Of a stretch of DNA of 8,484 nucleotides, positions 3,001 to 6,000 are shown piece by piece. Made by a program: the position numbers. Source of the DNA: a virus (Duplodnaviria > Heunggongvirae > Uroviricota > Caudoviricetes); the IMG/VR virus record IMGVR_UViG_2690316316_000010, positions 1 to 8,484 of that record; one strand, given 5' to 3'. The first letter of the stretch is position 1. Each line of letters begins with the position of its first letter.

Positions 3001-6000
3001 CGCCACCGCCCCCCATCATCAGGCCGCGCGCTTCCTCCAGAAAATTCAGGAACTGGCAAAACTCAATAACCGGATCCGTCTGTTGCTTTATTGCCAGAGC
3101 TTCATCACCGTCACGCTGCTCAATGAGTAAAGCCCGTGCCTTTTCAGGGTCGGTAAAGTTCGCCAGCAAGCGGCGGATAATGACGGGGATTTCAGCCGCA
3201 ATTTTTTCCGGTAGCTCCCTGTCTTTTTCGGCCTCACTAACAATATTGTCGAAACGGAAAATCACGCGACGACGTGCCACACCTCCGGCCCGTTCGGTGA
3301 ATATCATCGGGTTGTTGTTGGTCGCCAGCACCACCGCCCTGATTACCGCCGTGAAACGCTTTTCATATTTCGGGTTAATTTCCACGGGGTCGCCGCCCGT
3401 GATTTTCTTGATGCCCGTTCCTTCGCCTGTATATTTCGGCTGGTCAGCCAGGACAATAAGACGACTCCCGACAACCTGCGCACGTCCACCAGCATCATCA
3501 AGCGATGTCATTTCAGCGCTTACCGTGTTCTGTTTCCCTGCCAGAAGGCTGGCTATGTGTGTGAATGTACTTTTACCGCTCCCGCCGTCTCCGGTGGCCT
3601 CAATAAACATCTGCCAGTCGTACCGGTTCGCCATAATCATGTACAGCGCGGCACATATACGCATCATCTTGCGCGGGTCTTTTCCGGCTGCGTGCTCAAG
3701 CCATTTATGAAAGTTTGGCGCGTTATCGCGGATGTTCTCCCCTGGTGCTGGTGGCGTGTACTCAATGCCGTTGTTCGTGGTGATCCAGTTCTCCGGCGTG
3801 TGCGGGGAAAATTCCCCCGTTTTCAGGTCAAGCGCACCATTGGCGAACGGCAGCAAATCGCCGGACGGCTCGCCCATTGGTTCGGCAATAACTTTTAACG
3901 CTTCCACGGCGTTATTGATTACGCGCTTGCTGAAAGTGGCCCTGTGCTCTGAATAGATCGCCACCATTTCGCGGCTAAGTTCCATTGTGCTGACCGGACA
4001 CCATACCCCGCCGCGCCATACGTGAACGATTTCACTTTCCGGATGCACACAAACGCCATCAAATCGACCAGCAAGCATCTGTGCGCGCTCACTGTCTGCC
4101 ATTTGTGCCAGTTGCGTATTTTTCTGCTCCGGCATGGTAAGCCCTGCGGCAATATTTTCACGCTCAGCATTCAGATAGCGCCGCCAGTTTTCACACTTCT
4201 GGACGTGCATTCCTTCGGGGTAAAAATTTGCGTCCTGAATATCTGCCGCCGCCAGCTTCTGACCAATCTTTTTGGTCTCCACCAAATCCAGTTCTCCGGC
4301 CTGGTACAGCCTTACGCGCTTTTTCCCATCCGGAACAATTTTCAGTGCATCAAGTTCGGCAAGCTGATTTGGCCCAAGCCACACAGGCGGCACATTATCG
4401 CCGGATGCGGGGCCATCCTGCTCCTGCCATTGTTTCGCGTGCGACCAGGCATCACTACCCGCGAAAATAATTACCTCTGTGTCTTTGTGTTTTATTCCGC
4501 GTGGCTGTTTTTTTACGTTCGGTGCCAGTTTCATTTTTTACCCCTGAATACGTTAAGCATCTTTTTTATTTCCTGAATATTGGCGCGTGCTTTCTCCCTG
4601 CTGGTTGGTTTACTGCGGGGCGCTGCCTGTACCAGAGAAAAATCACGCCGAAACTGATAAACAGGCATCACGCAATCATATTCGTAGCCTTCACGACGGT
4701 AGGTGATGCGCCGTTCTGCCACGCCTTTAATCGTTACCATGCCGCCATATTTATCGCGGTAAATATCGCCGTTCATAAATTCAGGACGAGCGGGGCCGCT
4801 GGCAGTAACGCCAGAATTTTTATTTTTCATGTTTTTTATTCTCCGGTGTGCTGCGCTTTATTATTCTCGTGAATTGCCATCACTGTATTTAATTCATTAA
4901 TAACAGGCGTTAATAGCGTACGCACGGCAGAAAACATCATTGAATCAGATTCATCGCCACTTTCCGGCACATCAATTAACTTAAGTAGTAATGCGTCCAT
5001 TTCCTTTGCGCGGATTAATGCGTTTTCAGAATGAACAAGAACATCAAAGGGTATTTTATGCATGACTCCCCCCCTGGCGAATACGGGCGACAAAAATAAG
5101 ATGTGCGTGCGGCAACTGGGCGCGGGCTTCGCGCTCAGTGGCAGCGGTAACGGTGAATATTGCAATACTGTCTGTCAGGCACTGCATAAAGCGCCAGACA
5201 AAATAAGGGCGTGCGGATACAGCCATGTGAAAGGCTCCCAGATGAATTTTAAGGAGTCTCGCTACTACGCTGTCAAACATGGTGGCGAGACGTAACAGGG
5301 TTGACAGACTGGTCATCTGGAAACCAGCGAGCACAAAGGCTCCCCCGTTACGCCCCGCCATAATGCGGGTATGGGTAGGTTTACGGACACAAAAAAACCG
5401 CTTATCGGATGTGGGCGGCTGTCCGCCAGATGTATTCAGGCTGTCAAACCCGGTCGCCATGTGGGCGACGGGGGAAGCATACAGCCCCGTGATAATTTTT
5501 TGCAAGCGGTTTTTACGCATGATGTGACCCCTGACGAATACGGGCGGCGAATACAGCAACACAACCGGACGGGCAACGGCTACGCGCTTCGCGTTCCGTC
5601 CAGGCGGTTACGTGGATGATTTGAGATTCTCCGGCACTCAGTGCCAGAAAACGCCACACAAAGGCAGTTTGTGTGTGCGCCAGACGTGGGGTATGCTGTG
5701 TTCCAGCCATAATCGTTACTCCTGTTAACGGTTTGGTTAGACGCCCCGCTACTGCCGCAAACAGTTCGGGGCGTTGTCGTTTACATCCTCTTACTGAGGT
5801 GTGATTTAAATTAAATTCAACTGAATCACAGGTCAAGTGTTTTTTGTGATTCTTTTTTGTGTATACTGAATCACATCTTTTGTTTAGGAGAATGCACATG
5901 GCAAAAAACACTATCAACGACAAATCAAAACAGATTTCAATTCGTATCCCACATGATGCTTTTGATGGCATGGAATCCGTAAAACTGGACGGCGAAAGCA

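Follow-up and report, generated by a model that had tools for sequence, protein, structure and literature searches.

Two Icd/Kil-family cistrons flanking a P1-type C4 antisense RNA module in the putative control region of an Escherichia coli phage satellite

The DNA considered here, referred to as the window, comprises the 8,484 nucleotides at positions 1 to 8,484 of the IMG/VR virus record IMGVR_UViG_2690316316_000010 (Caudoviricetes). Its minus strand carries two small open reading frames (ORFs) of the Icd/Kil family, icd1 and icd2, and the approximately 290 nt that separate them correspond to a c4 antisense RNA module of the phage P1 type. A preliminary description of this locus had recognized the two ORFs as old tandem paralogs and had proposed that they were retained because they act on distinct targets; the C4 module between them had been overlooked. 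By inference from its gene order (int-alpA...primase...small terminase-capsid), the window would belong to an E. coli phage satellite of the kind known as Gram-negative phage-inducible chromosomal islands (PICIs) and represent its immunity and regulatory region. Related E. coli loci are designated below by L numbers where they need to be told apart.

The icd genes and the C4 module between them

The elements at the centre of the locus are, in the direction of transcription of the icd genes:

5513-5710, minus strand: icd1, 65 aa, upstream Icd/Kil-family cistron, with the Shine-Dalgarno (SD) sequence AGGAG at 5723-5719
5476-5505, minus strand: promoter-like site, with -35 TTGCAA at 5505-5500 and -10 TATGCT at 5481-5476
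5425-5482, minus strand: upstream C4 target element, with a1 TTGACAG at 5447-5441 and b1 CATCTGG at 5432-5426
5391-5420, minus strand: weak terminator-like hairpin with a U7 run, 3' part of an isrK/seqA-like element
5278-5365, minus strand: C4 antisense RNA gene
5235-5276, minus strand: downstream C4 targets, with a2 TTGACAG at 5276-5270 and b2 (T)CATCTGG at 5245-5238
5056-5226, minus strand: icd2, 56 aa, with the SD sequence GGGAG at 5239-5235, positional orthologue of P1 icd and P4 kil

Both icd products share the motifs FVWRF, VTAxTEREAR and ARIRQG, and both exceed the curated cut-off (25 bits) of the NCBIfam model NF033153 (phage_ICD_like), with 64.8 bits for icd1 and 53.7 bits for icd2; the founding members P1 Icd and P4 Kil score 52.6 and 76.1 bits, respectively. 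Icd1 and Icd2 are identical at 25 of 49 residues in a BLASTP alignment (51%, E 8e-14), while their DNA is only moderately similar and requires indels to be aligned. In comparisons with relatives, the ratio of nonsynonymous to synonymous substitutions (dN/dS) is 0.22-0.43 for icd1 and 0.07-0.46 for icd2, and both genes are thus kept under purifying selection. The view that these are two genuine ORFs with their own SD sequences, that they are paralogs of the Icd family, and that both copies have been retained (dN/dS below 0.5 for each) is therefore borne out. Icd1 and Icd2 probably keep the division-inhibiting or killing activity of Icd/Kil proteins. Pfam has no match to either ORF or to the longer frames discussed below, a sequence search of the PDB returned no match, and a tblastn search with Icd1 against 50,697 phage records retrieved a single satellite-like record and neither P1 nor P4; the link to these two phages hence comes from the RNA module and from the NCBIfam profile, not from tblastn. 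In more than 1,000 E. coli genomes, both ORFs already carry the name Icd-like in the annotation of the NCBI Prokaryotic Genome Annotation Pipeline (PGAP).

The preliminary description had also pointed to an ATG embedded in the last codons of each ORF, which is indeed seen in the sequence and is conserved in relatives. The 3' end of icd1 reads CAT CAT GCG TAA, in which the ATG at 5520-5518 opens the next frame; that of icd2 reads CAT GCA TAA, in which the ATG at 5063-5061 is the start of a 75-aa ORF, orf75. Both icd genes thus share with the following frame an 8-nt overlap, ATGNNTAA, present as ATGCGTAA at 5520-5513 and as ATGCATAA at 5063-5056. The pattern ATGNNT(A/G)A is found at both junctions in 10/10 aligned E. 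coli relatives, although the C-terminal residues and the downstream gene vary among them, and the overlap is kept in 25 of the 26 satellite-type viral contigs in which it could be assessed. For comparison, P1 icd has an ATGA overlap with ant1, and P4 kil an 8-nt overlap with epsilon. Taken from these alignments, a conserved coupled junction at the end of each icd gene is supported.

As judged by alignment, the segment from 5505 to 5056, hereafter module 2, is homologous to the whole of the immI control region of phage P1. It is 78-80% identical in DNA sequence to the c4 regions of P1, P7 and D6, and its elements follow the same order as those annotated in P1 immI (a1, b1, c4, a2, b2, icd). The promoter-like site at 5476-5505 aligns with the P1 promoter P1c4 (formerly P51b) and would, by this homology, be active as a promoter. 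The positions of a1 and b1 were carried over from the P1 annotation, and exact heptamer matches were found there; the Rfam model c4-a1b1 (RF03163) matches 5433-5482 on the minus strand with 46.8 bits, a marginal pass of its gathering score of 46.7. The hairpin at 5391-5420 (-10.5 kcal/mol, z -1.4) is kept in P1 and P7, and the element to which it belongs scores 35.2 bits on the isrK model, below the gathering score of 50.

The C4 RNA gene itself matches Rfam RF01695 with 72.6 bits (gathering score 45, E 4e-13). Alignment with P1 places the mature RNA at about 5359-5281, with its 5' end presumably at GGCGGGG (5359). The predicted fold (-45.9 kcal/mol, z -6.4) leaves a' (CUGUCAA, 5307-5301) single-stranded and presents b' (CCAGAUG, 5320-5314) in a hairpin loop. 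Each of these can pair with two sites, a' with the two copies of TTGACAG and b' with the two copies of CATCTGG, and, apart from their complements inside C4, the a and b heptamers are confined on that strand to the four predicted targets. This was established by exact-site analysis, as a RNAduplex scan with the whole C4 RNA was uninformative because its G+C-rich stems pair with many places. The b2 site overlaps the icd2 SD (5239-5235), and the icd2 ATG (5226-5224) is aligned with that of P1 icd; icd2 is thereby the first cistron downstream of C4, with an RNA target at its ribosome-binding site. By analogy with P1 and P4, C4 is expected to be processed from the leader by RNase P and to repress the downstream genes.

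Specificities and history of the duplicated unit

The pairing sites were compared in 17 C4 units from 11 E. coli loci, together with P1 and P7. A matching b1 lies about 104 nt upstream of every C4 loop, and in all units but one, located in the pseudogenised locus L013, a matching b2 stands about 84 nt downstream of the loop, directly 5' of the SD of the following icd. The three-way covariation of b1, b' and b2 extends over P1, P7 and at least eight satellite specificities, which lie within otherwise 87-99% identical sequence, while the a sites fall into two types only, that of P1 (TTGACAG) and that of P7 (TTAGCAG). This covariation provides strong comparative evidence that the C4 RNA and its targets are functional. 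A scan of genome contigs with an 18-mer pattern gave only chance-level matches in unrelated taxa; the same pattern was productive in viral contigs. The specificities of the two phages and of the window are as follows:

P1: b' CACTAAC, target GTTAGTG
P7: b' CACAATC, target GATTGTG
Window: b' CCAGATG, target CATCTGG

In five relatives (L001, L009, L010, L013 and L014), the whole isrK/a1b1-C4-a2b2-icd unit is present twice in tandem. The two units then differ in specificity, and the b2 of the upstream one adjoins the SD of icd1; a b2 target at the icd1 ribosome-binding site is found in L001, L009 and L010. Only the downstream C4 is present in the window and in L002, L006-L008 and L011. That a coupled unit had been duplicated as a whole, as first proposed from the shared stop/start architecture, therefore finds confirmation in the relatives with a C4 unit before each icd, and it follows that one of the copies was later remodelled. 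The locus is thus a mosaic built from a duplicated coupled unit.

In the window, icd1 has no a or b sites upstream, and hence no C4 target at its ribosome-binding site. Control of icd1 by the window C4 was considered and rejected on this ground; a 7-mer match to b at 6664-6670 is at chance level. Instead, icd1 is preceded by a leader hairpin and by a divergent promoter with flanking operator-like repeats, opposite a gene of the YlcI/YnfO family:

5800-5830 and 5845-5875: operator-like inverted repeats TGTGATT-N17-AATCACA, 45 bp apart and of identical geometry

These repeats, located between icd1 and the YlcI/YnfO gene, overlap the putative icd1 promoter, whose -35 (TTGACC, 5836-5831) abuts the first repeat, and look like operators of a divergent promoter pair. 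The YlcI/YnfO-family gene is a candidate for a DNA-binding regulator of the putative icd1 promoter, and an N-terminal ribbon-helix-helix in its product is a guess from sequence. Other satellites have the same promoter-icd arrangement, without C4, as their sole icd, and many relatives have a single icd. The leader hairpin (GCCCCG...CGGGGC, 5733-5766, minus strand) follows the putative icd1 promoter and precedes the icd1 SD. Its counterpart in L001 has a loop (L001 7318-7326) with a 9-nt match to the b' loop of the downstream C4 of that locus; the loop in the window has no such match.

Long open frames and the surrounding genes

The reading frames of both icd genes are open far upstream of their SD-supported starts, from a GTG at 5562 in the case of icd2 and an ATG at 6646 in that of icd1, as had been stated in the preliminary description. 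They are designated ORF-L1 and ORF-L2:

5513-6646, minus strand: ORF-L1, 377 codons, ends as icd1; first ATG at 6646, open to 6703
5056-5520, minus strand: ORF-L2, 154 codons from the ATG in the icd1 stop (ATGCGTAA), ends as icd2

ORF-L1 runs antisense through two plus-strand genes and through the divergent promoter region. From stop to stop, up to 6703, the icd1 frame has 0 stops in 331 codons, as compared to 25 and 20 in the other two minus-strand frames, and none of 5000 shufflings of its intergenic parts was stop-free. The frame is open up to the upstream gene in 11/16 relatives, with differing sequences. In the plus-strand YlcI/YnfO gene, substitutions at codon positions 1, 2 and 3 number 20, 9 and 44, so that the plus strand is the protein-coding one there, and the wobble positions of the two strands coincide. 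Outside the plus-strand genes, ORF-L1 displays no codon periodicity, and it has no family match outside its Icd part; the possibility that it encodes a conserved protein was rejected for these reasons.

ORF-L2 spans a1b1, C4 and a2b2 before entering icd2, in a frame that is open from stop to stop up to 5607. It is open over 153-154 codons in 10/10 aligned loci, where the other two frames contain 5-10 stops. Three of these ten loci (L009, L011 and L014) have a -1/+1 indel pair that replaces about 35 residues and nonetheless leaves the frame open. Among viral contigs, the coupled ATG is followed by at least 110 open codons in 25 of 26 satellite-type units, while the number of open codons does not exceed 28 in 36 of 41 P1-type units, and P1 itself has three stops in the equivalent frame. 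A few P1-type units, those of L059, L070, L073 and L118 (icd of 72-74 aa), differ from most in having 68-110 open codons upstream of icd. Of the possible b specificities, only 58% would keep ORF-L2 open, which under a crude model makes the 8/8 observed an event of probability about 0.013. Both frames thus look as if they were selected for translatability and not for a conserved peptide. Openness without amino-acid conservation suggests read-through translation of the kind known for P4 eta, and ORF-L1 and ORF-L2 are candidate eta-like read-through ORFs; by the same analogy, translation of ORF-L2 may prevent immunity-dependent termination, as in P4.

Two IMAG strings in the extended frames had been taken as a hint of longer Ash-like forms. 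The strings are present, but they are not equivalent: the one in the downstream frame corresponds to where the C4 RNA gene begins on its 5' side (ATTATGGCGGGGCG), and the one in the upstream frame simply to the start codon of icd1 with its surroundings. The idea of longer forms retains substance, since the layout mirrors the nested eta and kil frames of P4, but the Ash likeness does not stand, as Pfam Phage_ASH (PF10554) matches neither the 154-aa nor the 377-aa frame of the window. This model matches P4 eta (82.4 bits) as well as frames of L001 and L014, and in all three the match covers the isrK/seqA and CI/C4 RNA regions, which indicates that the 'Ash family' is largely an RNA region read as protein.

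The genes around the icd cistrons are:

7267-8484, minus strand: integrase gene
6704-6892, minus strand: alpA/vis-type regulator gene (Pfam Phage_AlpA, 65.2 bits)
6261-6434, plus strand: 57-aa ORF (phrog_21027)
5898-6203, plus strand: YlcI/YnfO-family gene (NCBIfam YlcI_YnfO_N, 65.7 bits; phrog_6522 over the full length)
2786-5063, minus strand: downstream coupled operon orf75-DUF4222-primase, made up of the next three genes
4836-5063, minus strand: orf75, 75 aa (phrog_2196), with the 8-nt overlap with icd2
4531-4830, minus strand: DUF4222 gene (Pfam DUF4222)
2786-4534, minus strand: D5-type primase gene, with an ATGA overlap (Pfam D5_N, DUF5906 and Pox_D5)

The alpA stop codon is the first in-frame stop 5' of the long icd1 frame. 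Directly 3' of it, and 5' of the first ATG of ORF-L1 (6646), lies a stable hairpin, GGCGGCACACAGCCGCC, at 6679-6695 on the minus strand (z -5.7), which has no U run. The YlcI/YnfO gene and the 57-aa ORF are transcribed away from the icd operon, in an antisense register in which their wobble positions are shared with the long minus-strand frame, and a strong intrinsic terminator (6524-6557, plus strand; 14-bp stem, U7, -21.7 kcal/mol, z -4.25), itself located within the minus-strand ORF-L1, closes this plus-strand unit. The orf75 gene occupies, after icd2, the position that epsilon (encoding the helper derepression protein) has after kil in P4, and is swapped for unrelated genes in L002, L011 and L014. 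Further left in the window, the minus strand carries genes for a small terminase subunit and a capsid-family protein. The related E. coli loci adjoin tRNA or housekeeping genes and have capsid, decoration and protease genes.

A proposed antisense RNA switch, its rivals and its known relatives

In our reading, which we consider probable, icd1 and icd2 are the first cistrons of two successive control modules in an antisense RNA switch of the P1/P4 type, a switch that most likely gates the replication genes of the satellite. In the repressed state, the P51b-like promoter would transcribe a1/b1, the weak terminator, C4, a2/b2 and icd2, a proposal that comes from homology and alignment with P1. The processed C4 RNA would then pair, through its a' bulge and its b' loop, with a2 and b2, and icd2 would not be translated because the C4-bound b2 overlaps its SD. 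As icd2 is coupled by ATGCATAA to orf75, which leads into the DUF4222 and primase genes, its block would silence the replication operon through loss of coupling and Rho-dependent polarity, much as c4 acts on icd-ant in P1 and CI on kil and the alpha operon in P4. In module 1, icd1 would be expressed from the operator-flanked promoter that faces the YlcI/YnfO-family gene. Ribosomes arriving from icd1, or travelling on the alpA transcript through the 377-codon frame, could re-initiate at the ATG at 5520 and translate across the C4 targets, making such transcripts insensitive to C4, as P4 eta does. The icd2 block, the silencing of the operon and the escape by read-through are what we infer from these parallels, and the same is true of the promoter activities.

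Several observations weigh against this scheme. The promoters proposed for icd1 and for module 2 (P51b-like) match the consensus only weakly, and a simple promoter/terminator scan missed both, as well as the isrK-type terminator; the hairpin between b1 and C4 is weak. The openness of ORF-L1 within the plus-strand genes is not significant (P 0.12-0.26), and ORF-L1 is short (90-109 codons) in 5/16 relatives, so that read-through from alpA cannot be essential everywhere. Since the C4 regions of the satellite loci are close relatives of one another, shared ancestry accounts for part of the conservation of ORF-L2. Selection on Icd1 and Icd2 shows that the proteins themselves matter, which fits the earlier proposal of separate targets. 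Finally, an AlphaFold2 model built from a 26-sequence alignment (beta-beta-alpha-beta, pLDDT (predicted local distance difference test) 70) gave nothing below E = 2, and hence no structural relative, in a Foldseek comparison with the PDB.

The proposal of separate targets holds that two division inhibitors or toxins diverged towards different host or helper factors, and that the overlaps serve only for co-expression. Purifying selection on both ORFs agrees with it, as do the annotation of P1 Icd and P7 Icd as cell-division inhibitors and the killing of cells reported for P4 Kil (PMC10111431); the largest difference between the two products lies in the central segment, LALSAGESQIIH versus MQCLTDSIAIF, a segment that also varies between loci. 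We nevertheless regard it as unlikely. Chimeric genes with an icd1 N-terminal and an icd2 C-terminal part, in which the intervening module has been lost, occur in nature as the only icd of otherwise identical satellites, which argues that Icd1 and Icd2 are largely interchangeable, and many relatives make do with a single icd. Moreover, the Foldseek result supplies no structural relative that could point to a target, and separate targets leave the C4 module, the covarying targets at the icd2 ribosome-binding site and the ATG within the icd1 stop unexplained. To consider each icd copy as the first cistron of its own control module would be more economical. Still less likely, in our judgement, is that recombination left icd1 behind as a functionless remnant of an upstream C4 unit that used to be complete. 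The presence of C4 before icd1 in relatives, a truncated third icd fused to an 'ash' frame in L001 and the highly mosaic nature of the region would all suit such a relic, but not the strong SD, intact frame, dN/dS of 0.22-0.43 and conserved coupled stop/start of icd1, nor the fact that a promoter-icd arrangement without C4 is the only icd in other satellites.

The reading embodied in RefSeq and PGAP, namely that the ATG at 5520 begins a genuine Icd-like protein of 154 aa, which has a functional N-terminal part of 98 residues and overlaps the RNA elements only incidentally, seems to us very improbable. Besides its annotation by PGAP, it has in its favour a frame that is open from a conserved ATG in satellite relatives (10/10 loci; 25/26 contigs). 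Yet the strong Rfam matches and the three-way covariation of the RNA sites fall in this N-terminal part, to which no protein family matches; the 78% identical P1 DNA has three stops there, P1 Icd starting at the aligned short ATG; and the indel pairs of L009, L011 and L014 replace about 35 residues, leading PGAP to call these copies 'frameshifted'.

A further extension of the control-module reading, which we hold to be possible but which is rather less than an even bet, is that eta-like read-through works in two stages, ORF-L1 and ORF-L2 being kept open purely for ribosomes to travel from alpA to the primase gene. ORF-L1 would carry them antisense through the repressor-like gene, the operators and the icd1 promoter, and ORF-L2 through the C4 module. 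If so, helper-induced transcripts would be immune to both the protein-controlled promoter layer and the C4 layer, the amino-acid sequence of either extension would not matter, and the hypervariable b loops would define satellite immunity groups limited to the roughly 58% of specificities that keep the frame open.

Among known systems, P1/P7 immI (P51a/b-a1 b1-c4-a2 b2-icd-ant1/2) is the closest to module 2. The window is collinear with it from 5505 to 5056 at about 78% DNA identity and has the promoter in the same position, b2 at the icd ribosome-binding site and an overlap of icd with the next cistron. The a specificity (TTGACAG) is common to P1 and the window, whereas the window b (CCAGAUG) is new with respect to CACUAAC in P1 and CACAAUC in P7. 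Other differences are that immI controls the antirepressor gene ant in P1, while the window module would control the satellite replication operon orf75-DUF4222-primase, that Icd2 lacks the C-terminal 20 residues of P1 Icd, and that the window adds, upstream, a second icd and a read-through frame that is closed in P1.

In overall layout, the window resembles P4 (PLL-vis-eta / PLE-seqA-CI RNA-seqC-kil-epsilon...alpha), which is also a satellite and has an alpA/vis gene upstream. In P4, an isrK/seqA element lies upstream of the CI RNA, which Rfam assigns to the C4 family (74.9 bits); P4 Kil (65 aa) aligns with Icd and, with its 76.1 bits, falls into the Icd family, so that the window locus matches P4 eta/kil/CI. 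The eta frame of P4 is open from the vis stop through the CI RNA gene into kil, as the window frames are in their region, and kil, like icd2, overlaps the following gene by 8 nt and has a primase operon downstream. P4 has one kil, in contrast to the two Icd/Kil cistrons of the window, where the read-through frame is split into ORF-L1 and ORF-L2 and the RNA module is of the P1 sequence type; P4 also lacks the divergent YlcI/YnfO gene and the operator region that ORF-L1 crosses, and its eta frame matches Pfam Phage_ASH, unlike the window frames. The immunity logic of P4 is summarised in PMC10111431, together with the finding that the eta frame is kept open without a conserved peptide (Forti et al., 1999, via PMC10111431).

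That article reports Rfam C4/isrK matches in the 'Bro zones' of Gram-negative PICIs and, in this same class of elements, CI/seqA homologues between alpA and the replication genes, for which immunity functions are suggested (Mageeney et al., 2023, PMC10111431); the parts of it considered here do not contain tandem Icd/Kil cistrons, a/b covariation of the P1 type, a remodelled upstream unit or conserved open frames. Another parallel is isrK-orf45-anrP of Salmonella Gifsy-1, in which an isrK/seqA-type hairpin and a terminator precede a small ORF whose translation is needed, via a stop/start overlap, for that of the next gene, and in which the nucleotide sequence and not the peptide is conserved (Hershko-Shalev et al., 2016, PMC4825925). 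There, IsrK activates translation in trans, whereas the window C4 is expected to repress, and the score of the window element on the isrK model, 35 bits, falls short of the gathering score of 50. The c4-icd and CI-kil/eta systems are thus classical, and C4/isrK matches in Gram-negative PICIs are known. We found no description of satellites in which two tandem cistrons are arranged around a P1-type module, of the remodelled upstream unit, of the extent of specificity diversification or of two conserved sequence-free open frames.

The C4 RNA gene is unannotated in public genomes, and PGAP calls the C4 module plus icd2 a 154-aa 'Icd-like protein', 'frameshifted' in three relatives. More generally, the C4/isrK regions of L001, L009-L014 and RefSeq appear as 'ash family protein', as extended 'Icd-like protein' (reaching 551 aa in L014) or as 'frameshifted' pseudogenes. 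RefSeq still names the P4 'cI protein' a 'transcriptional repressor', and the PHROG label 'transcriptional repressor' (phrog_1743, phrog_6196) probably descends from this obsolete annotation.

In more than 1,000 E. coli genomes, the RefSeq 154-aa 'Icd-like protein' is accordingly an RNA gene read as protein. The silencing of Gram-negative PICIs is poorly understood, and P1-type antisense immunity in many covarying specificities, placed immediately before the replication operon, offers a concrete mechanism for it. This predicts that satellites fall into heteroimmune groups and that cross-talk may occur with P1-like plasmid prophages having the a site in common with them. The sequence-free open frames, for their part, would represent a natural case of selection for translatability and not for a protein.

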